Below, one piece after another: positions 734-39,917 of a stretch of DNA of 39,917 bases (positions within the stretch are counted from its first letter, which is position 1; each line of letters begins with the position of its first letter). The stretch lies in sequence record MZ726794.1; one strand, written 5' to 3'. Under the pieces are notes generated by a model, which saw nothing but the letters and a program-made list of their open reading frames with translations, was not told where the DNA came from and made no database searches. The translations under genes were made by a program, and so were the position numbers. Origin of the DNA: Escherichia phage vB_EcoA_ASO2B.

Positions 734-784
734 CTACAGGGCCTTTGAGTCTACATCTGAAGGCCCTGACTGATAGTCACTAAC
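734..784 (+). promoter_or_regulatory. RNase III-type processing hairpin (R0.3-like) preceding first early gene
   Basis: agggcctt...aaggccct inverted repeat followed by ctgactgatagtcactaac, a motif recurring before successive early genes; preceded by gctctttaacaatctgg, as found upstream of T7 R0.3. Confidence 0.45.
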
Positions 785-791
785 TTAACGG

Positions 792-1046
792 ATGAACACT
801 ATGAAACACTTAAGCACAATCACTAATCACAATGAAGTATTCGTGAACACTAAAGGTTATGCGTGGATTCAGCTTAAAGAGATGACAGGAGCGCGTCACC
901 GTGTGGTAGTGCGCAAGGTCTCAAGCAAGCCGTTCAGCAACTACAGCATAGATACTGTGCGCATAGACAACGAGACCTACCTGATAGATTCGCAGATAAC
1001 CGTGAGTCCTACAGCGGGCGTCTCAGCTCCTTATTTCGCTAACTGA
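792..1046 (+). CDS. Hypothetical early protein (84 aa)
   Basis: ORF exactly fills the gap between two R-site hairpins in the early region; weak SD; no recognisable family. Confidence 0.45.
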   Translation: MNTMKHLSTITNHNEVFVNTKGYAWIQLKEMTGARHRVVVRKVSSKPFSNYSIDTVRIDNETYLIDSQITVSPTAGVSAPYFAN

Positions 1047-9887: not shown

Positions 9888-10339
9888 TGGCCCAATGGTC
9901 TGCAAAACGGGGGCACTCTGTGGGTGCCTACCGCTCTGGACTTGAAGCCAAGAACCAGCAGTGGCTGGAACAGAATGGCGTCAAAGCGGAGTACGAAAGC
10001 CATTATATCAACTATGTGATTCCGGCTTCCGACCACAAGTATACACCAGACTTTATCCTTCCTAACGGTATCATCGTGGAGACCAAAGGTATCTTCGATA
10101 GTGATGACCGTAAGAAGCACCTTCTGGTACGAGAACAGCACCCAGAGTTAGACATCCGGTTCGTGTTCTCAAGTTCCCGCTCCAAGCTATACAAAGGGTC
10201 TCCGACCACGTATGGCGCATGGTGTGAAAAGAATGGCTATAAGTATGCCGATAAGTTCATCCCGGTTGAGTGGCTGAAAGAGGCGACTGTACGTCTGCCT
10301 TCAGGTATCCTCATCCCCAAGAAGAAAGGAGTTAAGTGA
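9887..10339 (+). CDS. Endonuclease I, Holliday-junction resolvase (T7 gene 3 homolog)
   Basis: FRSGLE...YVIPASDHKYTPDFILPNGIIVETKG...DDRKKHLLVREQHPELDIRFVFSSSRSKLYKGSPTTYG closely matches T7 gp3. Confidence 0.92.
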   Translation: MAQWSAKRGHSVGAYRSGLEAKNQQWLEQNGVKAEYESHYINYVIPASDHKYTPDFILPNGIIVETKGIFDSDDRKKHLLVREQHPELDIRFVFSSSRSKLYKGSPTTYGAWCEKNGYKYADKFIPVEWLKEATVRLPSGILIPKKKGVK

Positions 10340-10809
10340 TGACTCAGAAATTTAGACTTAAGGTTAGTGACTACGGGTGGCCTAAAGGCACTATCGTTAC
10401 GAAATGTGCGAAAGACCCTGCACCATCAAACGGGCGTACTCTGGTGGAATCCACTGAGCGTGGCACATATAAACACGGAGCAGCAGGTCATAACACTCAG
10501 CCTGATGGTATGTGGGGGGCGTGGGTTGTAAACGAAAATCTTGAGGAAATCGTAGAGGATAAACCTCAGGTCCTACCAGCCTCAAGCGTCCCTCCTGTCA
10601 CCGTTAAACGTGAAGTCCTGACCATCAACAAGATTGGTGTAGGCCAGACGTTCATCGTCCACGGTAAGCCTGACGAAGTGTACGTGAAGATTAGCAACTC
10701 TCACGTATTCAACCACAAGCGGCTACAGATGCACACGACTGACGCACAGCGCTTCCAGTCACATCTGAATCTGGTGGTAGTAGAACTGGTGGTGTACAAT
10801 GGTAAGTAA
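10339..10809 (+). CDS. Hypothetical protein (156 aa) inserted between endonuclease I and lysozyme
   Basis: ATG 10339 overlaps gene 3 stop (TGATG), SD aaggag; no T7 counterpart at this position; no family recognised. Confidence 0.55.
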   Translation: MTQKFRLKVSDYGWPKGTIVTKCAKDPAPSNGRTLVESTERGTYKHGAAGHNTQPDGMWGAWVVNENLEEIVEDKPQVLPASSVPPVTVKREVLTINKIGVGQTFIVHGKPDEVYVKISNSHVFNHKRLQMHTTDAQRFQSHLNLVVVELVVYNGK

Positions 10810-13527: not shown

Positions 13528-15699
13528 ATGTTTGACCTTAAGAGTATCTGGGGTTCTGACATCGAGACCAACGGTCTCCTTGATACAGTCTCCCAGTTTC
13601 ACTGTGGGGTCCTGATTAACGCCGAGTCGAATGAGACCCTTAAGTATGGGGTAGCTCCGATGGTCGGTATCGTCGGTGGCTTCAAAGAGTATGTTCATAA
13701 AGTGGAAGAGATTGCCGCATCACCTGATGGTATGCTGGTATTCCATAACGGTATCAACTATGACGTCCCTGCTATAGACAAGCTGAAACGTCTGTACTTT
13801 GGGAAACGCTTTAACTTCCCGAAACACAAGATGATTGATACCTTGGTGCTGGGGCGCTTGATGTATCCAAACATTAAGTTCTCAGACATGGGCGCAGTGA
13901 AATCTGGTCGTCTGCCACCTAGTATGATGGGACGTCAGTCTCTTGAGGCTTGGGGCTATCGTCTCGGTGAGATGAAGGGTGAGTACAAACACGATTACGT
14001 TGCCAAATGCAAGGCTGAAGGTATCGAATATAAGGCTGGTGACGAATGGTTGTTCCCGTCTCAGGAGATGCTGGACTATAACGTTCAAGACGTTGTGGTC
14101 ACACTGGCGTTGTTCAAGAAGTTCCTGACTGACAAGTATTACTTCCAGTCTGAACAGTTCGCTTTCGACCAGATTTATGCGTTGCGTCTGGAACACGATG
14201 CTGCGTGGACCTGTGCGAAGATGGAGCGTAACGGCTATCCGATGAACACCGAGATGGTCGAAGGCTTATATCGTGAACTCACCGTCAAACGTGCAGAGTT
14301 GCTGGACAAGCTGCGTTCGACTTTCGGTAGCTGGTACGCACCAAAGGGCGGAAAGGAGTTCTTCAAGCACCCACGTACAGGCAAGGACCTTCCGAAGTAT
14401 CCGAGAGTCGTGTATCCTAAGGTCGGGTCAGTATTCAAGAAGCCGAAGAACAAAGCTCAACGCTTAGGTCTGGAGCCTTGCGAGTTCGACTCACGAGACA
14501 CGATGGAGGGAGCACCGTTCACACCTATCACTTACGTTGAGTTCAATCCGGGAAGCGGGGACCACTTAGCGAAAGTTCTGATGGAGCGTGGCTGGGAGCC
14601 TGTGGACTTCACTGACACCGGGAAACCTGTAGTCGATGACGAGACGTTAGAACACGTTAAGTTGCCAGACGAAGAGGCTCAGGCTTGCGTAGAGCTGGTC
14701 CGTGAGTATCTGGTAGTCCAGAAGCGCATCGGTCAGGCTGCTGAAGGTAAGAACGCATGGTTGAAACTTGTAGGTCCAGACGGACGTATGCACGGTTCAA
14801 TAAACCCATGCGGGGCAGTAACCGGACGTGCGACTCACAGTTCACCAAACATGGCTCAAGTCCCGGCTAACGGTGCTCCATACGGTGAGACTTGCCGTGG
14901 TGCTTTCGGTGCAGCTTGGAACAAGACGGATGGTAAGCCAGACCCTTGGATTCAAGTAGGCGTGGATGCTTCAGGTCTTGAGCTTCGTTGTCTAGGGAAC
15001 CGAGCGGCTCCGTTTGATGGTGGAGACTATGCGAAGACTGTGGTCGAAGGGGACATACACTGGGCCAACGCAGTAAACGCTGGGTTAGCACCTAACGTCC
15101 CACGCGACAAGTCGAGCCACGACCATGATGCTTTCCGTAATAACGCTAAGACGTTCATCTATGCGTTCCTGTATGGTGCAGGGGCCGCGAAGATTGGACT
15201 GATAGTTGGCGGTGGTAAGAAGGAAGGTTCAGCTCTCATGAAGAAATTCATTGAGGGCACACCAGCCATCAAGGACCTCAGGGAAGCTGTGAGTGATACG
15301 TTAATCTCAGACTCTAAGTGGGTGGACGGAGAGAACATCGTCAAGTGGAAACGCCGTTGGTTGCGTGGACTTGATGGTCGGCGTATCCACATCCGGTCTC
15401 CACACTCAGCACTTAACGCCTTACTTCAAGGCGATGGTGCGGTAGTCTGTAAGCACTGGATTGTCGAGACTGAACGTATGCTCGAAGATGCCGGGTATGT
15501 TCACGGCTGGGAAGGTGACTTTGCGTACATGGCTTGGGTTCACGATGAGCTACAGATTGCGTGTCGTACTCAGGAGATTGCCGAAGAAGTCGTCAAGATT
15601 GCTCAACTTGCTATGCGTAAGGTGGGTGAGTTCTATAACTTTAAATGTGTCCTTGATACCGAAGGTAAGATTGGACCAACGTGGAAGGAGTGTCACTAA
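13528..15699 (+). CDS. DNA polymerase (T7 gene 5 homolog)
   Basis: Start at 13528 (SD ggagg); the track start 13492 lies inside the R-site motif. Motifs DIETNGL (exo I), VFHNGINYDVPA, NAKTFIYAFLYGAG, YMAWVHDELQ; the thioredoxin-binding region is present. Confidence 0.96.
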   Translation: MFDLKSIWGSDIETNGLLDTVSQFHCGVLINAESNETLKYGVAPMVGIVGGFKEYVHKVEEIAASPDGMLVFHNGINYDVPAIDKLKRLYFGKRFNFPKHKMIDTLVLGRLMYPNIKFSDMGAVKSGRLPPSMMGRQSLEAWGYRLGEMKGEYKHDYVAKCKAEGIEYKAGDEWLFPSQEMLDYNVQDVVVTLALFKKFLTDKYYFQSEQFAFDQIYALRLEHDAAWTCAKMERNGYPMNTEMVEGLYRELTVKRAELLDKLRSTFGSWYAPKGGKEFFKHPRTGKDLPKYPRVVYPKVGSVFKKPKNKAQRLGLEPCEFDSRDTMEGAPFTPITYVEFNPGSGDHLAKVLMERGWEPVDFTDTGKPVVDDETLEHVKLPDEEAQACVELVREYLVVQKRIGQAAEGKNAWLKLVGPDGRMHGSINPCGAVTGRATHSSPNMAQVPANGAPYGETCRGAFGAAWNKTDGKPDPWIQVGVDASGLELRCLGNRAAPFDGGDYAKTVVEGDIHWANAVNAGLAPNVPRDKSSHDHDAFRNNAKTFIYAFLYGAGAAKIGLIVGGGKKEGSALMKKFIEGTPAIKDLREAVSDTLISDSKWVDGENIVKWKRRWLRGLDGRRIHIRSPHSALNALLQGDGAVVCKHWIVETERMLEDAGYVHGWEGDFAYMAWVHDELQIACRTQEIAEEVVKIAQLAMRKVGEFYNFKCVLDTEGKIGPTWKECH

Positions 15700-32000: not shown

Positions 32001-32931
32001 CATCGTGGAGCATAGCCTGACTGGTAGTAAGCGTAAATTCGATGACCGCTGGCTGAAGACAGCTGGTATCTCTGACGAGCAGTGGAAGGGCATTAAGTCC
32101 CTAATCCGTGAGTCAGTGACTCGTGGTCCAGACGGGAAGTATATCATCAAGGATAAGAAGGCGTTCAGTCAGGACCCAAGGGCTATGGACCTGTGGCGTA
32201 TGGGTGATACCATCGCTGACGAAACGTTACTCCGGCCACACAAGCTGTCCAACATGGACGCCAAGGCTTATGGTCCTCTCGCTAAGACTGTCCTTCAGTT
32301 TAAGAACTTCGTCATCAAGTCCATCAATGGACGTACCATGCGAACCTTCTATAACGCCACGAAGAACAACCGAGCGATGGACGCTGCCTTGTCCACTGTG
32401 ATGTCTATGGGTCTGGCTGGTATCTACTACATGGCTCAGGCGCACGTCAAGGCCTACGCTATGCAGGATGGTCGAGACCGTGACTACCTCAAGCAAGCTC
32501 TAGACCCGACGATGATTGGATATGCAGCTCTATCACGTAGTTCACATCTTGGTGGACCACTTGGGGTAGCTAACATTCTGGGTGGCATCGCTGGGTATGA
32601 GGACACTAAGATGCTCCGTTCGTCTATCCTACCTCGTTCGCCTACAGAGAAGCCTGAACGTGCCATCGCGTATGGTGCAGCTACAAGCGGCCCTGTGATG
32701 AATGTTGTTGGTAACTTCTTGGAGCAGGTTCCAGCTTTCGGATATGCTGCTAACGTTGGCGCTTCGGCTTACAACTTGGCTGGCTACCTCAAGGCTGATA
32801 CTCGTGTCAACGAGCGTGACTACATGACCGGGATGTATAATACGTTCCGTGAACTGGTTCCGAACGACCCAATTACCCAGAAGCTGTTGCTTGGAACGTT
32901 TGAGGAGCAAGGTATCCACATCAAGGACTAA
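29044..32931 (+). CDS. Internal virion protein D (T7 gene 16 homolog), 1295 aa, with divergent N-terminal domain
   Basis: From about residue 200 onward matches T7 gp16 (RLEARETARN, DLVRSPTGMQSGASGK, PHVYS, EENIxGLVGxENNSFLEARNLFDSD, RPHK, LSRSS); N-terminal ~150 aa lack the T7 transglycosylase motif I recall. Confidence 0.92.
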   Translation: MATRGIRNNNPGNIRVSKDQWEGMTGDDGSFVTFDSPESGVRALGKNLLSYGRQGYDSIEKIINRWAPPNENDTKAYIDSVVAATGIPATQSLDLSNPDTLSALAQAISFHETGSRYNPEVYQKGVERALNGISPKTPPVSANVFDALTEGLKAKPKVALGENLPTAAGLNIEGQAPEAPNESFGEMFYKSTGETMQEREDRSTWFGFGSATEAEVKNSMVGVAIRAGQTEDSLDVIGDVFNPTRWNNHKWSREELDQIRNAGVLPQYYGVITGGSPQNLTELINLALENQKLDQEKAKAGTGAQLAAGVIGAGVDPLTYVPIAGQVGKGAKLVNKMFTVAAQSGALAGVSEMARTSVAGGDAHVAEAILGGALFGGGMTAIADGLGRALGRNTNEFAGPATRLEARETARNVDGQDLSRLPIQEGEQTFSHQGVKFADVPNEPGSVRLEDGSILIGENPLNPKTRQVFDEVIEPERAAAGVNLGGLTEIGLKLLRSENPEIRGVAADLVRSPTGMQSGASGKIGTTASDVFERLRAVDHRFYNDIDDAVTEALKDPYFQTAFWRDSGAFRQDIYQRVSMAIEDGSGNLKAELTPGELKVYDLLKNQFDAKREMMENPAMFGRSDAQSIFPGSRFKGTYVPHVYSKQMKELYTKELGSPEALQEAIKKAWLTSYASRPEVKKRVDEALLESDPTLTPEGLAAAVDKYANDKAYGISHTEQFERSSVMEENINGLVGLENNSFLEARNLFDSDMSIVLPNGQTFSVNNLREWDMDKIVPAYNRRVNGDIAIMAGTGKTTKEMKDLVETMMNKAGDDGKLKGEVSTLRDTLKILTGRARRDGADDAAFAAVMRTMTDLSFFAKNAYMGVQNLTEIGGMLARGNVRAMLHGVPIFRDLAFRNKKVGASEIKDLHNVIFGKELDDSIRPSKQDVIDRLRSYSDLGRGTATALGTAKYYTGELAVRSPFTKALNGTTNYLLDAGRQGFLSDIVEHSLTGSKRKFDDRWLKTAGISDEQWKGIKSLIRESVTRGPDGKYIIKDKKAFSQDPRAMDLWRMGDTIADETLLRPHKLSNMDAKAYGPLAKTVLQFKNFVIKSINGRTMRTFYNATKNNRAMDAALSTVMSMGLAGIYYMAQAHVKAYAMQDGRDRDYLKQALDPTMIGYAALSRSSHLGGPLGVANILGGIAGYEDTKMLRSSILPRSPTEKPERAIAYGAATSGPVMNVVGNFLEQVPAFGYAANVGASAYNLAGYLKADTRVNERDYMTGMYNTFRELVPNDPITQKLLLGTFEEQGIHIKD

Positions 32932-32949
32932 ACTATCACTATAGGAAAC
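32927..32949 (+). promoter_or_regulatory. Phage RNAP promoter (phi17-like)
   Basis: ggactaaactatcactataggaaac overlapping the gp16 stop. Confidence 0.8.
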
Positions 32950-32995
32950 GGGAGGCGCTATCATAGGTCTCCTTTAATTCATAACAGGAGGCATA

Positions 32996-35900
32996 ATGTC
33001 CACGATTACACAATTCCCTTCAGGAAACACTCAGTACAGGATTGAGTTCGACTACCTCGCCAGAACGTTTATTGTTGTTACGCTGGTGAATAGCTCTAAC
33101 CCTACCCTGAACCGTGTACTGGAAGTTGGTCGAGATTACCGATTCCTTAATCCAACGATGATTGAGATGTTGGTTGACCAATCAGGTTTCGACATCGTTC
33201 GTATTCACCGTCAGACTGGAACTGACTTAGTGGTAGACTTCAGGAATGGCTCAGTGTTGACAGCTAGTGACCTGACCAATTCAGAGCTTCAGGCTATCCA
33301 TATTGCAGAAGAAGGTAGAGACCAAACGGTTGACTTAGCGAAGGAATATGCCGATGCTGCTAGTAGCTCTGCTGGCAACGCTAAGGATAGCGAGGACGAA
33401 GCACGACGAATCGCTGAGAGTATCAGGGAAGCTGGTCTAATTGGCTATATTACCCGTCGCTCCTTCGAGAAAGGCTACAACGTTACAACATGGAGCGAGG
33501 TCCTGCTATGGGAAGAGGATGGTGATTATTACCGCTGGGATGGTACGCTTCCAAAGAACGTTCCTGCTGGTTCAACTCCTGAAACTTCCGGTGGGATTGG
33601 ATTAGGTGCGTGGGTTAGTGTTGGTGATGCTGCTTTAAGAAGTCAGATTTCAAATCCTGAGGGGGCAATACTCTACCCTGAATTACATAGAGCACGCTGG
33701 CTTGATGAAAAAGATGTTCGTGGTTGGGGTGCTAAAGGTGATGGTGTCACTGATGATACAGCAGCGTTAACGAGCGCATTAAACGACATACCGGTTGGAC
33801 AAAAGATTAATGGCAATGGGAAGACATATAAGGTCACGTCCCTGCCTGACATTAGTCGCTTCATCAACACTCGTTTCGTTTATGAGCGCATTCCCGGACA
33901 ACCTCTTTATTATGCCTCTGAGGAATTTGTTCAGGGTGAGTTGTTCAAAATAACTGACACCCCTTATTACAATGCGTGGCCTCAGGATAAAGCGTTCGTA
34001 TATGATAATGTGATATATGCACCTTACATGGGCAGCGATCGTCATGGTGTCAGTCGTCTGCATGTATCATGGGTTAAGTCTGGTGATGATGGTCAAACAT
34101 GGTCTACTCCAGAGTGGTTAACTGATCTGCATCCAGATTACCCTACAGTGAACTATCACTGTATGAGTATGGGTGTATGTCGCAACCGTCTGTTTGCCAT
34201 GATTGAAACACGTACTTTAGCCAAGAACGCATTAACCAATTGTGCATTGTGGGATCGCCCCATGTCTCGTAGCCTGCATCTTACTGGTGGTATCACTAAA
34301 GCTGCAAATCAGCAATATGCAACAATACATGTACCAGACCACGGACTATTCGTGGGTGATTTTGTTAACTTCTCTAATTCTGCGGTAACAGGTGTATCCG
34401 GTGATATGACTGTTGCAACCGTAATAGATAAGGACAACTTCACGGTTCTTACACCCAACCAGCAGACTTCAGATTTGAATAACGCTGGAAAGAATTGGCA
34501 CATGGGTACGTCTTTCCATAAGTCTCCATGGCGTAAGACAGACCTTGGTCTAATCCCTCGTGTCACAGAGGTGCATAGCTTTGCTACTATTGATAACAAT
34601 GGCTTTGTTATGGGTTATCATCAAGGCGATGTAGCCCCACGCGAAGTTGGGCTTTTCTACTTCCCTGATGCTTTCAATAGCCCATCTAGTTATGTTCGTC
34701 GTCAGATACCATCTGAGTATGAACCAGATGCGTCAGAGCCGTGCATCAAGTACTATGACGGTGTATTATACCTTATCACTCGTGGCACTCGTGGGGATAG
34801 ACTAGGTAGCTCTTTGCATCGTAGTAGAGACATAGGTCAGACTTGGGAGTCACTGAGATTTCCACATAATGTTCATCATACTACATTACCTTTTGCTAAA
34901 GTAGGGGATGACCTTATTATGTTTGGTTCAGAACGTGCAGAAAATGAATGGGAAGCAGGTGCACCAGATGATCGTTACAAGGCATCTTATCCTCGCACCT
35001 TCTATGCACGCTTGAATGTAAACAATTGGAATGCAGATGATATTGAATGGGTTAACATCACTGACCAGATTTATCAGGGCGGAATAGTTAACTCAGGTGT
35101 AGGTGTTGGTTCGGTAGTTGTGAAGGATAATTACATCTACTACATGTTTGGTGGAGAGGACCATTTTAACCCATGGGCATATGGAGATAACTCAGCGAAG
35201 GACCCATTCAAATCAGATGGTCATCCCTCAGATTTGTATTGCTACAAAATGAAGATTGGCCCAAGCAATCATGTTTCCCGTGATTTCAGGTATGGTGCTG
35301 TACCTAACAGAGCTGTTCCCGTGTTTTTTGATACGAATGGGATTCGCACTGTTCCTGCGCCAATGGAATTTACAGGGGATTTGGGTTTAGGTCATGTGAC
35401 CCTTAGAGCCAGCACCAGTAGTAACATTCGCTCTGAAGTTTTAATGGAAGGTGAATATGGGTTTATCGGGAAGTCTATACCGACTGATAATCCAGCAGGG
35501 CAGCGCACCATATTTTGCGGAGGTGAAGGCACCAGTTCAACGACTGGCGCACAGATTACGCTTTATGGTGCAAATAACACCGACTCAAGGCGAATAGTTT
35601 ACAATGGTGATGAGCATCTGTTCCAGACTGCTGACGTTAAGCCTTATAACGATAACGCCATTGCGCTTGGTGGGCCAAGTAACCGTTTCACAACTGCATA
35701 TCTCGGAAGCAACCCTATTGTTACTTCTAATGGGGAGAAGAAAACAGAGCCGGTAGTTTTTGATGATGCTTTCCTAGATGCCTGGGGTGACGTTCACTAC
35801 ATCATGTATCAATGGTTAGATGCTGTTCAACTGAAAGGCAATGATGCTCGTATTCACTTCGGGGTTATTGCTCAGCAAATTCGTGATGTATTCATTGCAC

Positions 35901-36190
35901 ACGGTCTGATGGATGAAAACAGTACGAATTGTCGTTATGCCGTTCTGTGTTATGACAAGTATCCACGGATGACCGATACGGTATTTTCGCACAATGAAAT
36001 CATTGAACACACTGACGAGGAGGGTAATGTCACTACTACGGAAGAGCCTGTATTCACTGAGGTGGTTATCCATGAAGAGGGTGAAGAGTGGGGTGTCCGG
36101 CCTGACGGAATTTTCTTTGCTGAAGCCGCTTATCAGAGAAGAAAACTGGAAAGAATCGAAGCCAGACTTTCTGCTCTTGAACAGAAGTAA
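32996..36190 (+). CDS. Tail fibre / tailspike (gene 17), 1064 aa: T7-type N-terminal adaptor fused to sialidase-type (endosialidase-like) depolymerase with C-terminal intramolecular chaperone
   Basis: N-terminus RIEFDYLARTFIVVTL matches the T7 gp17 adaptor (NIPFEYLARKFVVVTL); two perfect Asp-boxes SGDDGQTW (34079-34102) and SRDIGQTW (34823-34846); C-terminal HFGVIAQQ chaperone motif with Ser911-x3-Lys-Lys at 35726. Confidence 0.9.
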   Translation: MSTITQFPSGNTQYRIEFDYLARTFIVVTLVNSSNPTLNRVLEVGRDYRFLNPTMIEMLVDQSGFDIVRIHRQTGTDLVVDFRNGSVLTASDLTNSELQAIHIAEEGRDQTVDLAKEYADAASSSAGNAKDSEDEARRIAESIREAGLIGYITRRSFEKGYNVTTWSEVLLWEEDGDYYRWDGTLPKNVPAGSTPETSGGIGLGAWVSVGDAALRSQISNPEGAILYPELHRARWLDEKDVRGWGAKGDGVTDDTAALTSALNDIPVGQKINGNGKTYKVTSLPDISRFINTRFVYERIPGQPLYYASEEFVQGELFKITDTPYYNAWPQDKAFVYDNVIYAPYMGSDRHGVSRLHVSWVKSGDDGQTWSTPEWLTDLHPDYPTVNYHCMSMGVCRNRLFAMIETRTLAKNALTNCALWDRPMSRSLHLTGGITKAANQQYATIHVPDHGLFVGDFVNFSNSAVTGVSGDMTVATVIDKDNFTVLTPNQQTSDLNNAGKNWHMGTSFHKSPWRKTDLGLIPRVTEVHSFATIDNNGFVMGYHQGDVAPREVGLFYFPDAFNSPSSYVRRQIPSEYEPDASEPCIKYYDGVLYLITRGTRGDRLGSSLHRSRDIGQTWESLRFPHNVHHTTLPFAKVGDDLIMFGSERAENEWEAGAPDDRYKASYPRTFYARLNVNNWNADDIEWVNITDQIYQGGIVNSGVGVGSVVVKDNYIYYMFGGEDHFNPWAYGDNSAKDPFKSDGHPSDLYCYKMKIGPSNHVSRDFRYGAVPNRAVPVFFDTNGIRTVPAPMEFTGDLGLGHVTLRASTSSNIRSEVLMEGEYGFIGKSIPTDNPAGQRTIFCGGEGTSSTTGAQITLYGANNTDSRRIVYNGDEHLFQTADVKPYNDNAIALGGPSNRFTTAYLGSNPIVTSNGEKKTEPVVFDDAFLDAWGDVHYIMYQWLDAVQLKGNDARIHFGVIAQQIRDVFIAHGLMDENSTNCRYAVLCYDKYPRMTDTVFSHNEIIEHTDEEGNVTTTEEPVFTEVVIHEEGEEWGVRPDGIFFAEAAYQRRKLERIEARLSALEQK

Positions 36191-36323
36191 TAAACAAAAC
36201 CCTTTTGCCATTAAGTTGGTGGGTAGATGTTAGAAGGTTGTGGAGTTAGAGGCTAACTACACGCTAGACAACATAAGGTAACAACTTTGGGTCACGGACG
36301 ACCCGCTTTAAACTGGAGGTTTT

Positions 36324-36521
36324 ATGATTGAGTTAGACTTCAAGAATGAGGTCCTTAAAGCCTCTCCTATAGTCGGGACCGCTGCGGCTGATGGTGCCAG
36401 TCGGTTCTTCTTCGGACTTACACTGAACGAATGGTTCTACGTTGCAGCTATCGCGTACACCGTTGTCCAGATTGGTGTGCTAGTCTACAAAACGATTAAA
36501 GGAGGCGGTGGTAAAACATGA
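36324..36521 (+). CDS. Holin (gene 17.5-like)
   Basis: 65 aa with one transmembrane segment (YVAAIAYTVVQIGVLVY); located before the terminase/spanin genes as in T7. Confidence 0.7.
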   Translation: MIELDFKNEVLKASPIVGTAAADGASRFFFGLTLNEWFYVAAIAYTVVQIGVLVYKTIKGGGGKT

Positions 36522-36781
36522 CGCAGATGGACTTAGAGAAGTTCCTCTTAATGCTAGATACTGAACGTGCTCGACTCATGCTGCAAGACCTGCGGGATGA
36601 CACTAAGCGTTCACCTCAGCTCTACAACGCCATTGAGAAGCTACTGGCTCGTCACAACTTTGTGTTAAGCAAGGTGTCTGTTGACGAGAAGACGCTGGCT
36701 GATATGGAGGCCCTGAACGCAGAGTACGATAAGGTGCTCTCCGCTACGGAAGATAATGACACCGGGTATGGTGTTCAATAA
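36518..36781 (+). CDS. Terminase small subunit (T7 gene 18 homolog)
   Basis: FLLMLDTERARLMLQDLRDDTKRSPQLYNAIEKLLARHNF resembles T7 gp18; size 87 vs 89 aa. Confidence 0.8.
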   Translation: MTQMDLEKFLLMLDTERARLMLQDLRDDTKRSPQLYNAIEKLLARHNFVLSKVSVDEKTLADMEALNAEYDKVLSATEDNDTGYGVQ

Positions 36782-36783
36782 GT

Positions 36784-36832
36784 GTTAGACTCAAGGTCAT
36801 TACTGTATGTAGTGGCCTTTATGGTTAACACT
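36784..36832 (+). promoter_or_regulatory. RNase III-type processing site (R18.5-like)
   Basis: tagactcaaggtcattactgtatgtagtggcctttatggttaac; third copy of the 6248/13468 motif. Confidence 0.55.
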
Positions 36833-36882
36833 AACTAGTGGAGGAGACTCTACGTGCAATCTGATAAACCGGGAGGGCAACT

Positions 36883-37332
36883 ATGCTCGAATTTTTAAAG
36901 AGAGCGGCTCCGTGGTTACTTGCAGCAGTGATGTTTGCGGGTGGCTACCACACCGCTAATAATAAGTGGGAGGCTAAGGTCAATGAAGAATACACCTCGA
37001 ATCTTAAGGCATCGGAAGATACAAGGCTTGCTGTCCAAGCTGAAGTCAACAAAGTGTCCAAACGGTTTCAGGACGAAATGTCCTCGCTGGAAGGCAGCAC
37101 TGATAGGATTATTGCTGACCTTCAGTCTGACAATAAGCGGCTGCGCATCCGAGTCAAGCCAACGAGTGGAACCACGCAAAGTGACGGTCGATGCGTCATT
37201 GATGGTTACGCCGAACTTGACGAACGAGATGCTAAACGTCTTATCGCCATCGGAGTGAAAGGAGACAAGTGGATTAAGGCCCTTCAGGACACTGTGAGAG
37301 CCTTGCAGCAAGATAAGGAGGTGACGCATTGA
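36883..37332 (+). CDS. i-spanin (Rz-like, T7 gene 18.5 homolog)
   Basis: N-terminal membrane anchor [15 protein letters not shown], then a charged, probably coiled-coil periplasmic domain; SD gggaggg. Confidence 0.8.
36983..37258 (+). CDS. o-spanin (Rz1-like, gene 18.7), embedded in +1 frame of the i-spanin gene; start uncertain
   Basis: Lipoprotein signal with lipobox [13 protein letters not shown] and Pro-rich mature part; chosen ATG 36983 gives 91 aa; track ORF begins at 36935. Confidence 0.5.
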   Translation: MKNTPRILRHRKIQGLLSKLKSTKCPNGFRTKCPRWKAALIGLLLTFSLTISGCASESSQRVEPRKVTVDASLMVTPNLTNEMLNVLSPSE

Positions 37333-39092
37333 GTAAAGATTTAGTGGCGCGTCAGGCGCTAATGACTGCCCGTATGAAGGCAGACTTCGTGTTCTTCCTG
37401 TTCGTCCTGTGGAAAGCTCTGTCACTACCAGTCCCGACTCGCTGTCAGATTGACATGGCGAAGAAACTATCGGCTGGGGACAACAGGCGTTTCATCCTAC
37501 AGGCGTTCCGTGGTATCGGGAAGTCATTCATTACGTGCGCATTCGTGGTATGGAAACTGTGGAACAACCCAGACTTGAAGTTCATGATTGTGTCGGCCTC
37601 AAAGGAACGAGCAGATGCGAACTCCATCTTCATCAAGCGAATCATCGACCTCATGCCTCAGCTTCAGGAACTTAAACCTAAGCAGGGGCAGCGAGATGCG
37701 GTTATCAGCTTCGACGTTGGACCAGCCAAGCCAGATCACTCACCTTCGGTTAAGTCCGTTGGTATCACTGGTCAGTTGACTGGTAGTCGTGCTGACATCC
37801 TGATTGCCGATGACGTGGAGGTTCCTAACAACTCAGCGACTCAGGCTGCACGAGACCGTCTGTCAGAGCTTGTGAAAGAGTTCGACGCTATCCTGAAGCC
37901 GGGAGGTACAATCATCTATCTGGGTACTCCTCAGAACGAGATGACCTTGTATCGTGAGCTGGAAGGCCGAGGATACACCACTACCATCTGGCCCGCTCGC
38001 TACCCACGCGATAAGAAGGACTGGCAGTCTTACGGCGACCGTCTGGCTCCTATGCTTCAGGCAGAGCTTGAAGAGGACCCTGAGTCCTTCTACTGGCGTC
38101 CTACCGATGAAGTACGATTCGATGATACGGACCTGAAGGAACGTGAGCTGTCCTATGGTAAAGCTGGCTTCGCTCTACAGTTCATGCTTAACCCTAACCT
38201 GAGTGATGCCGAGAAGTACCCTCTGAAGCTCCGTGACCTTATCGTAGCAGACTTGGACCCAGCGTCTAGCCCAATGGTCTACCAATGGCTTCCTAACCCT
38301 CAGAACAAGCGTGAGGACGTTCCTAACGTTGGACTCATGGGTGACTCATACCACACGTATCAGACTGTAGGTTCTGCCTTCAGTTCGTACACCCAGAAGA
38401 TTCTGGTCATTGACCCTAGTGGTCGTGGTAAGGATGAAACGGGTTATGCGGTACTGTACCAGCTAAACGGCTACATCTTCGCTATGGAAGTTGGCGGTAT
38501 GCGAGGTGGCTATGAAGACTCTACGCTGGAATCCTTGGCTAAGATTGGTCGTAAGTGGAAGGTAAACGAATACGTCATTGAGGGTAACTTCGGTGATGGC
38601 ATGTACCTTGAGCTATTCAAGCCCGTAGCTTCCCGTATTCATCCTGCTGCTGTAACTGAAGTGAAGAGTAAGGGTCAGAAGGAACTCCGCATCTGTGACG
38701 TTCTGGAGCCTATCATGGGGTCTCACCGACTTATCGTCAACGCTGCTGCTATCGTCCAAGATTACCAGTCTGCCTCTGATAAGGATGGTGTTCGTAACCC
38801 TATCTACTCTCTCTTCTACCAGATGACACGTATCTCTCGTGAACGTGGAGCATTGGCACACGATGACCGACTTGATGCGCTGGCTATCGGTGTACAGTTC
38901 TTCGTTGAGTCTATGGCGAAGGATGCCAACAAAGGCGAACGTGAAGTCACTGAGGAGTGGCTGGAGGAACAGATGGAGAACCCACGGAAAGGCTTCGAGT
39001 CCATCCACACGGAGTTCTGGGACAATGGTGTCCGGGTAACTCACGATACGGACGACGAGATGGGACTAGGGTCCTACGTTACGTTCCACTAG
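37329..39092 (+). CDS. Terminase large subunit (T7 gene 19 homolog), 587 aa
   Basis: Size and order as T7 gp19 (586 aa); ATPase-like N-terminal half ([15 protein letters not shown]) and nuclease-like C-terminal half. Confidence 0.95.
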
Positions 39093-39186
39093 CTGAATGA
39101 ATAACTATAGGCGAAAACTGAATTAATAAGCAGTTAGTAACCTATAGTTACTACCAGTCTAACCTACTGTTTTACAAGGAGTTTGG

Positions 39187-39209: not shown

Positions 39210-39391
39210 ACCCCCCCGGTTACTTATAGTATTACTGTAGTGAATATACATATGCAGACTTTATGCAAGACCTTAGGAGGCAGACTACGAGTTCTTACCT
39301 AAGGCTTGCACCGATGGAAGGAGGGTGATATTAATCATAATCCCTCCAATACAGATAGTCACCGACCATAGATACAGGAGGTATGTAGCAT

Positions 39392-39550
39392 ATGGCAAAG
39401 ACCAAAGCTGTACTTAAAGCTCTGGCGACCAATCGAGCTACATACAGGTTTCTTGCTGCTGTTCTACTTGCTGCTGGCGTTACTGCTGGAAGTCAGTGGG
39501 TCGGGTGGGTCGAGACTCTCGTATGTTCTCTGGTGTCTCAGTGTAATTAA
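39392..39550 (+). CDS. Small hydrophobic protein (gene 19.5 position), 52 aa
   Basis: ATG 39392 with SD aggagg; MAKTKAVLKALATNRATYRFLAAVLLAAGVTAGSQWVGWVETLVCSLVSQCN. Confidence 0.5.
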   Translation: MAKTKAVLKALATNRATYRFLAAVLLAAGVTAGSQWVGWVETLVCSLVSQCN

Positions 39551-39679
39551 CGCAATCATGGTAACGATTCATGAGTGGAAGACCTAAGGTCAGTACGTGG
39601 ATAAAGACCCACTCTACTGACCTTAGCTACTGTAGTCAAGGACTTTAGGTAACACCTTAATAGAAGCTCACTTAGGGTC

Positions 39680-39755
39680 ATCCTACTTATTGGTCTATCC
39701 TAGTGTCGCCTGACCTACGGTCCTTGACCTACAGTGGCTGTGGCCTACAGTAGTG
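39680..39755. repeat. Right short-repeat array (SRR-like), CCTAC(A/G)G units
   Basis: cctacgg 39714-39720, cctacag 39728-39734 and 39744-39750, plus degenerate copies upstream; mirrors the left array at 104-217. Confidence 0.6.
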
Positions 39756-39789
39756 ACGATGAGTTTTGGACCAAAAGTTTGAGACCACA

Positions 39790-39917
39790 TCTCACAGTTC
39801 AAGAACCTCAAGTCTCCCCATAGGCCCTCTTTAAGTCCAGACCAAAGGCCCTACCCGTTACTGCTCCTTGCAGTCACAGCCAGTCTGTCATAAGGTTGGA
39901 CCGATGGTCAGGACTTC
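39790..39917. repeat. Proximal part of predicted direct terminal repeat; predicted physical genome terminus at ~39790
   Basis: tctcacagttcaagaacctcaagtctccccatagg parallels the T7 left end TCTCACAGTGTACGGACCTAAAGTTCCCCCATAGGGGG; continues into window start. Inference by analogy. Confidence 0.4.

Follow-up and report, generated by a model that had tools for sequence, protein, structure and literature searches.

Codon usage and homology breakpoints support horizontal acquisition of the endosialidase module of gene 17 in Escherichia phage vB_EcoA_ASO2B

We analysed a 39,917-nt stretch of DNA from Escherichia phage vB_EcoA_ASO2B (MZ726794.1; hereafter, the window) and found support for the distal part of gene 17 being a horizontally moving, compositionally foreign, capsule-degrading module carried on a T7-type anchor. 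An earlier note on this DNA had proposed that a depolymerase module was acquired horizontally onto a conserved T7-type anchor; matches of the distal DNA in foreign phages, its decoupling from the phage backbone and breakpoints on both sides of it all supported this proposal. Conceptually this is nothing new, as the modular, horizontally transferred K1F gp17 is the published type example, and its horizontal, modular origin was already reported in 2019 (PMC6872550). The features of the region are listed in Table 1.

Table 1. Features of the gene 17 region, in positions of the window.
Feature	Coordinates	Strand	Basis
Phage RNA-polymerase promoter phi17 (ACTAAACTATCACTATAGGAAAC), conserved backbone, drives gene 17	32927..32949	+	23-mer family; EcoDS1 annotation
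Gene 17, endosialidase tailspike precursor (endoNF type), 1064 aa + stop	32996..36190	+	ORF; DNA identity to K1F
T7-type N-terminal tail-anchor, aa 1-120	32996..33355	+	Pfam Phage_T7_tail; blastp; PDB matches
Tail_spike_N (TSP1/gp66-type), aa 156-211, between anchor and enzyme	33461..33628	+	Pfam PF18668; PDB 4oj5
Compositional change-point, backbone-like to AT3-rich	33506..33560	+	Codon log-likelihood; GC3 maximum likelihood
DNA-conserved segment, ~120 nt, 70-80% identity in tailspike genes of many unrelated phages	33517..33640	+	Distant blastn
K1-specific (endosialidase) module junction, 50-nt overlap	33712..33761	+	Homology ends/starts
Mature catalytic endosialidase, aa 246-910	33731..35725	+	Pfam; PDB matches
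Endosialidase parts: N-terminal extension, aa 246-312; beta-propeller, 313-754; beta-barrel insert, 424-506; stalk, 757-910			
C-terminal intramolecular chaperone domain, aa 911-1064	35726..36187	+	Peptidase_S74; PDB 3gw6; K1F annotation
Right cassette junction, 12-31 nt past the stop codon	36203..36221	+	Homology ends/resumptions

Gene 17 encodes a K1F-type endosialidase (endoNF) tailspike. Its DNA showed 97.2% identity to K1F gene 17 and 98.9-99.1% identity to Mt1B1_P3 and PR_Kaz2018. The product has the length (1064 aa) and the domain order of K1F endoNF gp17 (PDB 1V0E, 3GVL, 3GW6; GenBank AM084414, DQ111067), from which it differed at 25 amino acids by point differences only, and the gene occupies the same genomic place, after gene 16 and the phi17 promoter. 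The backbone was nearer to Mt1B1_P3 (99%) than to K1F (94.6%). We disregarded the 'terminator' of the old K1F record M63657 because it lies inside the corrected ORF. Minus-strand ORFs in the region (e.g. 35816-36211, 131 aa) were also dismissed, since they are antisense to a gene whose protein is ~98% identical to a solved enzyme and since all 11 phage-promoter-like 23-mers are on the plus strand.

Pfam and PDB matches accounted for the domains of the product. The anchor was recognized by Phage_T7_tail (PF03906; aa 10-120, 58 bits, cutoff 25.2), and its aa 6-115 were matched by PDB 7boz and 8dsp. Tail_spike_N scored 68.8 bits (PF18668, aa 156-211; cutoff 25), and the alignment to PDB 4oj5 (CBA120 TSP1) spanned aa 155-265. 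Endosialidase families PF12218 (127 bits), PF12217 (736), PF12195 (161) and PF12219 (261) matched well beyond their cutoffs, with E-values from 1e-37 to 1e-222, and PDB 1v0e and 3gvl matched aa 245-910 with E = 0; these matches cover the six-bladed beta-propeller, the beta-barrel insert, the N-terminal extension and the triple-beta-helix stalk. Glu581, Arg596 and Arg647, which we take from published structural work to be the active-site residues of endoNF, were all found at the expected positions. The ~98% identity to the characterised enzyme suggests that the product cleaves the K1 capsule (alpha-2,8-polysialic acid); the isolation hosts of the closest relatives were K1 strains and Mt1B1. In the C-terminal domain, Peptidase_S74 (PF13884) matched aa 914-971 (36.7 bits, cutoff 22) and PDB 3gw6 matched aa 790-1064 (E = 9e-183); in the K1F record, the mature peptides gp17* and gp17-CTD meet between aa 910 and 911. 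Both Ser911 and Lys916 were found in the product; this is the pair known from studies of the chaperone domain of K1F, where the domain is released by cleavage at Ser911.

Comparison with T7 and T3 gp17 by blastp gave a match over aa 6-113 (39% identity, E = 8e-19), and aligning gene 17 with its T7 and T3 counterparts as DNA showed no similarity. The T7/T3 alignment suggested in the earlier note thus located a breakpoint at the protein level only, at aa 113 (nt ~33335) and not at 33500. T7 and T3 have the N-terminal tail-anchor domain, the gene position and the promoter in common with our phage; their gp17 differs in showing no similarity past aa ~113 and in having neither Tail_spike_N nor a chaperone domain. 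The T7 and T3 protein is a fibre that binds LPS and is not an enzyme. The anchor, being of the T7 gp17 type, is predicted to bind the gp11/gp12 tail interface. Engineered K1F phages that keep only the T7-type anchor are viable, and anchor/enzyme swaps have been done experimentally (PMC13352976).

The DNA past ~33500 proved to be AT-rich, as had been noted by eye. GC content in 33500-36190 was 0.448, compared with a mean of 0.504 (sd 0.012) over all other 2691-nt windows; the lowest of these, at the early-gene left end, had 0.457, and none went down to 0.448. GC3 of the same region was 0.372 against 0.554 in the background (9558 codons), where no window of 896 codons was under 0.50; an average-like composition was not seen. 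Gene 17 as a whole had the lowest GC3 (0.388) among plus-strand ORFs of at least 100 aa, and GC3 was back at 0.51-0.60 in the genes downstream. Synonymous-codon usage in 33500-36190 also deviated from the background (G-test, G = 237, df 41, p = 2e-29); in equally long contiguous blocks of background, G averaged 59 and never exceeded 136. The expected third-position preferences held for GAT (fraction 0.73 vs 0.33 in the background), TTT (0.46 vs 0.21) and AAT (0.54 vs 0.22), each about twofold, but GGT was only slightly in excess (0.57 vs 0.49). The N-terminal adaptor was unlike the distal part, as claimed: the first 168 codons were background-like (G = 52.2; 43% of background blocks were equally deviant). 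The anchor segment, with a GC3 of 0.478, was no outlier, and the mature endosialidase segment had 0.379. These results confirmed that a swapped receptor-binding cassette can be flagged from raw sequence by composition alone.

The minimum of the cumulative codon log-likelihood, conditioned on amino acids and obtained with a model whose training codons came from further downstream in gene 17 itself, was at codon 170 (nt 33506). A GC3-only single change-point at 33512-33560 was set aside as too weakly resolved (LLR 3.9; 2-LL support 33059-33626), and the codon log-likelihood and fixed-segment tests were used instead. Codons 175-255 (nt 33518-33760), which lie outside the training part of the codon model, had a GC3 of 0.235; the minimum of 81-codon background windows was 0.321.

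Other Kayfunaviruses placed this switch in context. Over 8000-32900, the identity of the window to K1F was 94-95%, and it was equally high to Kayfunaviruses of Salmonella, Hafnia and Klebsiella, which carry other spikes. EcoDS1, pO2, ST31, ST35 (a Salmonella Typhi phage), Hafnia yong1 and Enterobacter MC06 have a near-identical anchor, linker and Tail_spike_N, with 88-92% aa identity (EcoDS1, 76%) up to aa 211-271; they differ in their hosts and in their unrelated distal modules; ST35, for example, carries a SASA esterase and pO2 a pectate-lyase-like beta-helix. Each of the six other Tail_spike_N-type Kayfunavirus spikes that we examined has Tail_spike_N, as do the endosialidases of IME207 and YX22; GA2A gp17 lacks it. 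The spikes of this type in seven Kayfunaviruses differ in their distal parts, five having less than 230 aa in common with the window; GC3 in the seven was 0.52-0.60 in the backbone, 0.24-0.40 from aa 175 and 0.34-0.43 distally. Because the seven spikes are 90-100% DNA-identical over aa 1-211, the drop at aa ~175 counts as a single inherited trait rather than as seven independent observations. GA2A, the sole control phage, whose gp17 lacks Tail_spike_N, had a gp17 GC3 of 0.54-0.68, about its backbone level of 0.58. Since the switch was common to all examined Tail_spike_N-type Kayfunavirus spikes whatever their enzyme, what 33506-33560 marks is not the entry of the endosialidase itself but the edge of a tailspike cassette that is larger and older.

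The distal DNA was found in phages whose backbone is not shared with the window. The spike gene of the siphovirus IME207 (Shuimuvirus) was 94% identical over 33519-36202 and 97-100% identical over 33821-35100; the distal part showed 81% identity to YX22 (Ackermannviridae) and 82% to UE-S5a (Gamaleyavirus), and the propeller 93-98% to the SP6-like K1-5. K1-5 gp47 (Vectrevirus) and the spikes of UE-S5a, IME207 and YX22 have the propeller, stalk and chaperone domain in common with our phage (72-92% aa identity), but each attaches by a different N-terminal module: a short peptide docking on an adapter protein in K1-5, a gp66-like N-terminus of 385 aa in UE-S5a, and their own anchors followed by Tail_spike_N in IME207 and YX22. 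Identity was patchy, the propeller of the window being K1-5/IME207-like and the stalk and chaperone domain UE-S5a/YX22-like.

GC3 of the endosialidase module was 0.33-0.42 in five carriers, whose backgrounds ranged from 0.39 to 0.55; it was near the Gamaleyavirus background (0.39-0.41) and under the backgrounds of all other carriers. The module was AT3-richer than the background in four of the five, including the low-GC K1-5 (0.327 vs 0.399); therefore, composition alone points to no sampled donor lineage and could partly be a property of the gene. Low GC3 might even be intrinsic to tailspike genes, through selection for slower translation and folding of beta-rich trimers or through local mutational bias, and it agrees with such a cause that every distal module examined in Kayfunaviruses was low and that T3 gp17 was mildly low (0.457 vs 0.541 in its background). 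We regard this explanation as very unlikely, because T7 gp17 was near-native (0.488 vs 0.510), GA2A gp17 was backbone-like or higher and the UE-S5a module was at about background (0.41 vs 0.39). Moreover, an intrinsic bias would not be confined so exactly between aa ~175 and the end of the gene, and transfer is shown directly by DNA that is 94-99% identical in phages of other families, up to sharp breakpoints that lie beyond the stop codon by 12-32 nt, in non-coding DNA.

On the left side, a distant blastn search with a 271-nt query (33500-33770) matched 563 records, and about half of the rows evenly sampled from them started at query positions 18-31 and ended at 129-170. The matches to this segment include the Ackermannviridae Det7, SFP10 and PM10, the siphoviruses 9NA, Skate, seszw and IME207, and a Gamaleyavirus-sized record. 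We propose that 33517-33640 is a left homology arm for cassette exchange. Left breakpoints clustered at 33582, 33628-33636, 33640-33652 and 33754-33761, and most Kayfunavirus backbones lost homology at the second of these. Kayfunaviruses of the pO2, Vec13 and PM129 type were 98-100% identical to ~33670, with homology over at 33754-33761, and DNA homology to the UE-S5a endosialidase began at 33712. The overlap between these two limits contains the stretch coding for GWGAKGDG (aa 243-250, nt 33722-33745). At the protein level, homology started at aa 234 for K1-5 and aa 235 for UE-S5a, and the N-terminal motif PF12708 of Pfam matched weakly at aa 241-263. The junction is nested, not single: the T7/T3 similarity ends first, at aa 113, followed by the codon switch and then by the K1-specific module. 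A junction at ~33500, as originally proposed, has the codon switch close by, but T7-type similarity ends at ~33335 and the enzyme-specific module starts at 33712-33761.

Homology to IME207 started at 33519 and to YX22 at 33530-33560, which coincides with the compositional change-point, and Tail_spike_N and the endosialidase are contiguous in both phages. If a spike like that of IME207 or YX22 had given the K1F lineage all of 33519-36202, from Tail_spike_N through the endosialidase to the chaperone domain, in one step, this would be accounted for, and ~33500 would be the depolymerase junction. We consider such a one-step entry improbable: 33520-33750 was merely 68-75% identical to IME207/YX22, yet 98-100% identical to pO2-type Kayfunaviruses that carry a different enzyme; identity to IME207 rose to 97-100% only past ~33820; and the low-GC3 tract from aa 175 was also present in Kayfunavirus spikes without endosialidase.

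On the right side, homology ended at 36202 in IME207 and YX22 and at 36222 in UE-S5a, and Kayfunavirus backbone homology resumed at 36217 in pO2, at 36221-36233 in many records and at 36266 in EcoDS1. Among the 11 related 23-mers of the window is the phi17 promoter, the counterpart of the annotated EcoDS1 phi17 promoter. No 23-mer phage promoter sites were found between 32950 and 39186; therefore, the cassette itself lacks a promoter. Scans for sigma-70 promoters and intrinsic terminators over 32800-36500 gave no enrichment compared with shuffles, an Rfam search of the whole window found no family, and the fold of the intergenic 36188-36330 was no better than shuffles (z = -0.74).

Taken together, we consider it highly probable that gp17 is a layered tailspike, that its cassette circulates and that exchange has occurred in two tiers. 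A tailspike domain scheme is available (PMC12632334). In the trimeric tailspike, the T7-type anchor (aa 1-~120) would hold the spike to the tail; the helical linker and Tail_spike_N, to ~aa 215-255, would form a second layer; the endosialidase (aa 246-910) would bind and cut the alpha-2,8-polysialic acid K1 capsule; and the chaperone domain (aa 911-1064) would fold the trimer and then be cut off. The tract between ~33510 and the stop codon, being AT3-rich, would be the trace of a tailspike cassette that moves around among unrelated phages and has so far not adopted Kayfunavirus codon usage. In an older tier, a Tail_spike_N-type spike would have been fused to the Kayfunavirus anchor, leaving the compositional edge at 33506-33560. 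Repeated, recent swaps of distal enzyme modules by recombination would form the other tier, with left joints in the conserved stretches at 33628-33640 or GWGAKGDG (33712-33761) and right joints just past the stop codon (36203-36221). Composition, domain content, homology breakpoints and decoupling from the backbone are shown by our data, and the order of these events, the mechanism of recombination and the donor are what we infer; the points where homology ends suggest recombination at conserved stretches.

With about even chances, in our judgement, the compositional edge at 33506-33560 would be the left edge of the ~120-nt Tail_spike_N segment, conserved as DNA in several hundred podo-, sipho- and myovirus tailspike genes, and not the depolymerase junction. 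Kayfunavirus gp17 would then be a chimera in three layers, with the T7 anchor as the native one, this segment as a pan-family spike 'socket' and an enzyme that can be exchanged. Together with the GWGAKGDG stretch, the segment would provide universal homology arms through which enzyme modules pass from one virus family to another, and the cassette pool as a whole would keep its own AT3-rich usage as turnover outpaces amelioration.

K1-capsulated E. coli causes neonatal meningitis, sepsis and urinary tract infection. The gene 17 locus sets the host range (K1-capsulated E. coli) and is a site for re-targeting K1F-type phages. The practical natural swap points are at aa ~175-215, at aa ~240-255 and just past the stop codon.

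The earlier note had judged by eye that the DNA beyond ~33500, in distal gene 17, was AT-rich and unlike the rest of the genome in third-position preference, and both impressions were borne out. The GC content of 33500-36190 was 0.448, below every other 2691-nt window; these averaged 0.504 (sd 0.012), and the lowest of them, 0.457, lay at the early-gene end. Its GC3 was 0.372 against a background of 0.554 (9558 codons), with no background block of 896 codons below 0.50; gene 17 as a whole (0.388) had the lowest GC3 among ORFs of at least 100 aa. A G-test of synonymous codon usage against the background gave 237 (df 41), while contiguous background blocks of equal size averaged 59 and peaked at 136. 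The compositional deviation is real and far beyond chance. Among the codons named as frequent, GAT (0.73 vs 0.33 in the background), TTT (0.46 vs 0.21) and AAT (0.54 vs 0.22) were strongly enriched, but GGT was slightly raised (0.57 vs 0.49). The N-terminal part was native in composition, as had been supposed: codons 1-168 of gene 17 were not separable from genome usage. GC3 was back at 0.51-0.60 in the downstream genes 17.5, 18 and 19. The second most AT-rich stretch was the early-gene left end, 1-2700 (GC 0.457 in a 2691-nt window, 0.412 for 1-500).

A maximum-likelihood change-point based on GC3 only fell at 33512-33560 and was poorly resolved (LLR 3.9; 2-LL support 33059-33626). For a second estimate, we cumulated the log-likelihood of codon choice given the amino acid under a 'foreign' model, trained on gp17 aa 271-1064, versus a background model; the curve had its minimum at codon 170 (nt 33506). 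Codons 175-255, outside the training set, had a GC3 of 0.235, lower than every 81-codon background window (minimum 0.321), and a summed log-likelihood of 16.7 (background maximum 6.5). The switch placed by eye at ~33500 thus lay within about 50 nt of the computed change-point.

Gene 17 is the ORF at 32996-36190 (1064 aa). By homology, its product is the endoNF of a K1F-like phage. Solved endoNF structures aligned to gp17 aa 245-910 (E = 0), chaperone-domain structure 3gw6 to aa 790-1064, the T7 gp17 structure to aa 6-115 and CBA120 TSP1 to aa 155-265. Residues E581, R596, R647, S911 and K916, which we take from published endoNF work to be functional, are present. In the K1F record, mature gp17* is annotated as aa 2-910 and the C-terminal domain, which is released, as aa 911-1064. 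Established knowledge of endoNF supplies the mechanism of gp17: a T7-type domain anchors the trimer, which breaks down the K1 capsule of polysialic acid, and folding depends on a C-terminal intramolecular chaperone that is afterwards cleaved off (PMC12632334, PMC6872550).

Domains of gp17, left-hand homology limits of gene 17 and promoter-like 23-mers
Feature	Position	Basis
Phage_T7_tail	aa 10-120	Pfam match
Tail_spike_N (TSP1/gp66 type)	aa 156-211	Pfam match
Endosialidase N-terminal extension	aa 246-312	Pfam match
Beta-propeller	aa 313-754	Pfam match
Beta-barrel insert	aa 424-506	Pfam match
Stalk	aa 757-910	Pfam match
Peptidase_S74 chaperone	aa 914-971	Pfam match
Kayfunavirus homology stop	33582	DNA alignment
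Kayfunavirus homology stop, majority (e.g. EcoDS1, Salmonella Typhi phages)	33628-33636	DNA alignment
Kayfunavirus homology stop	33640-33652	DNA alignment
Kayfunavirus homology stop (pO2, Vec13, PM129)	33754-33761	DNA alignment
IME207 (siphovirus) homology start	33519	DNA alignment
YX22 (Ackermannviridae) homology start	33530-33560	DNA alignment
UE-S5a (Gamaleyavirus) homology start	33712	DNA alignment
K1-5 homology start	33866	DNA alignment
23-mers related to ACTAAACTATCACTATAGGAAAC	2906, 6227, 7931, 9123, 11493, 17167, 20009, 21008, 25651, 32927, 39187	Sequence likeness

Likeness to T7 and T3 gp17 was confined to aa 6-113 (39%), indicating that the T7-type adaptor proper stops near nt 33335-33355. 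This alignment located a protein-level breakpoint, though not at ~33500, and DNA similarity was absent. Kayfunaviruses with other spikes kept 95-100% DNA identity from gene 16 into gene 17, then stopped at discrete points. In endosialidase carriers of other phage families, homology began between 33519 (IME207) and 33866 (K1-5). A rival reading has 33519-36202 acquired in one step from an IME207-like spike. Sliding identity contradicts it and makes it improbable: 33520-33750 was pO2-like (98-100%), whereas IME207 and YX22 reached 68-75% there. IME207 attained 97-100% only beyond ~33820, and pO2 identity collapsed past ~33750. Sliding identity decides between the candidate joints and, at the level of alignment, puts the K1-specific joint in 33712-33761, a 50-nt overlap holding the stretch coding for GWGAKGDG (aa 243-250). 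The neck segment just 5' of the endosialidase, 33610-33754, had 73% DNA identity to the matching part of UE-S5a's K5 lyase spike gene (10318-10462 of the UE-S5a locus); the same junction sequence therefore precedes another capsule depolymerase.

On the right, homology ended at 36202 in IME207 and YX22 and at 36222 in UE-S5a, 12-32 nt into non-coding DNA, and Kayfunavirus backbone homology resumed at 36217-36233. Kayfunavirus vB_EcoP-101120B2 showed unbroken homology over 35977-37000 (93.9%), starting at aa ~994, inside the chaperone domain, and taking in genes 17.5 and 18, which suggests an alternative right recombination point within the 3' end of the chaperone-domain sequence. A 51-nt stretch of that 3' end (36046-36096, aa ~1017-1034) was 90% identical to pO2 locus 14636-14686, just 3' of the pO2 gene 17 stop codon; that gene is unrelated, and its product had no Peptidase_S74 match. 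The stretch looks like a scar left by a former spike gene that carried a chaperone domain.

The compositional edge lies 5' of the enzyme joint. A distant blastn search with 33500-33770 matched 563 phage records. About half of the evenly sampled rows covered a shared segment alone, from 33517-33530 to ~33628-33670, at 70-80% identity; sharers included Ackermannviridae (Det7, SFP10, PM10), siphoviruses (9NA, Skate, seszw) and one record of Gamaleyavirus size. The segment's left edge coincides with the compositional change-point and its right edge with the commonest Kayfunavirus breakpoint. Seven Kayfunavirus spikes of the Tail_spike_N type, differing in their distal parts, had one common GC3 profile: backbone 0.52-0.60, gp17 aa 1-174 0.44-0.53, from aa 175 to where the shared part ends 0.24-0.40, and distal module 0.34-0.43. 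The gp17 of the Kayfunavirus GA2A, with the T7 anchor and without Tail_spike_N, had a GC3 of 0.54-0.68, about equal to its backbone (0.58). The low-GC3 tract thus goes with the whole Tail_spike_N-type cassette, not specifically with the endosialidase. The seven spikes are nearly identical in this region and so amount to a single inherited feature; the control, GA2A, is likewise one phage.

The endosialidase part had a GC3 of 0.33-0.42 in all five carriers, whose backgrounds ranged from 0.39 (UE-S5a) to 0.55 (the window), and lay below background in four of them, equalling it only in the Gamaleyavirus. This pattern fits a mobile module not equilibrated with its carriers; composition does not indicate the donor. 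It also leaves some room for a codon bias intrinsic to spike genes, which we consider very improbable, as it is contradicted by T7, by GA2A, by the match between module and background in UE-S5a, and by DNA that is nearly identical across unrelated families and reaches into non-coding flanks. The endosialidase gene (33821-36190) was itself mosaic: the propeller (33971-35000) was 93-99% identical to K1-5 and IME207 and 63-75% to YX22 and UE-S5a, and the stalk and chaperone domain (35100-36190) 81-98% to YX22 and UE-S5a and 21-73% to K1-5.

Gene 17 was decoupled from the backbone. The window at 8000-32900 was 99.0% identical to the Kayfunavirus Mt1B1_P3, an Escherichia phage, and 94-95% to many further Kayfunaviruses (K1F, 94.6%), being as near to K1F as to Salmonella, Hafnia and Klebsiella Kayfunaviruses; for gene 17, DNA identity was 98.9-99.1% with Mt1B1_P3 and PR_Kaz2018, and 97.2% with K1F, where the gene is annotated as the endosialidase precursor. 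Composition, domains, breakpoints and this decoupling support the proposed horizontal acquisition onto a T7-type adaptor, with a nested rather than a single junction. Gene 17 is thus very probably a layered chimera from horizontal exchange, the best supported reading. From these patterns we infer an order of events, and recombination as the mechanism: an older fusion would have put a spike of the Tail_spike_N type onto the Kayfunavirus anchor, leaving the compositional edge at 33506-33560, and distal enzyme modules would later have been swapped repeatedly, with left joints in conserved stretches and right joints just 3' of the stop codon. Latka et al. (PMC6872550) remarked on endosialidase homologues in K1-5 and phi92, and anchor/enzyme swaps in K1F have been carried out experimentally (PMC13352976). 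Horizontal acquisition onto a T7-type anchor has already been described for K1F, and the GC3 anomaly is an expected corollary; the nested breakpoints are the refinement.

Every long ORF lay on the + strand, and their order was that of the T7 genes. No direct repeat was shared by the first and last 600 nt (1-600 and 39318-39917), so at most one copy of a T7-type terminal repeat is in the window. The eleven tabulated 23-mers that resemble ACTAAACTATCACTATAGGAAAC probably serve as promoters for the phage RNA polymerase. The interval 32950-39186 held no such site, so transcription of genes 17 to 19 would come from phi17 (32927) or upstream. The intergenic region before gene 17.5 did not fold better as a whole than shuffles (z = -0.74); it contains a short hairpin, GGGTC-ACGGAC-GACCC (36289-36306), directly before the gene 17.5 ribosome-binding site. 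In two database records the host given in the name looks implausible for a K1F-like coliphage: PV615262.1 ('Acinetobacter phage vB_Aba_01KA'), with a 98.2% identical endosialidase gene, and MT350292.1 ('Enterococcus phage EFA-1'), with a 96.5% identical Kayfunavirus lysis region.
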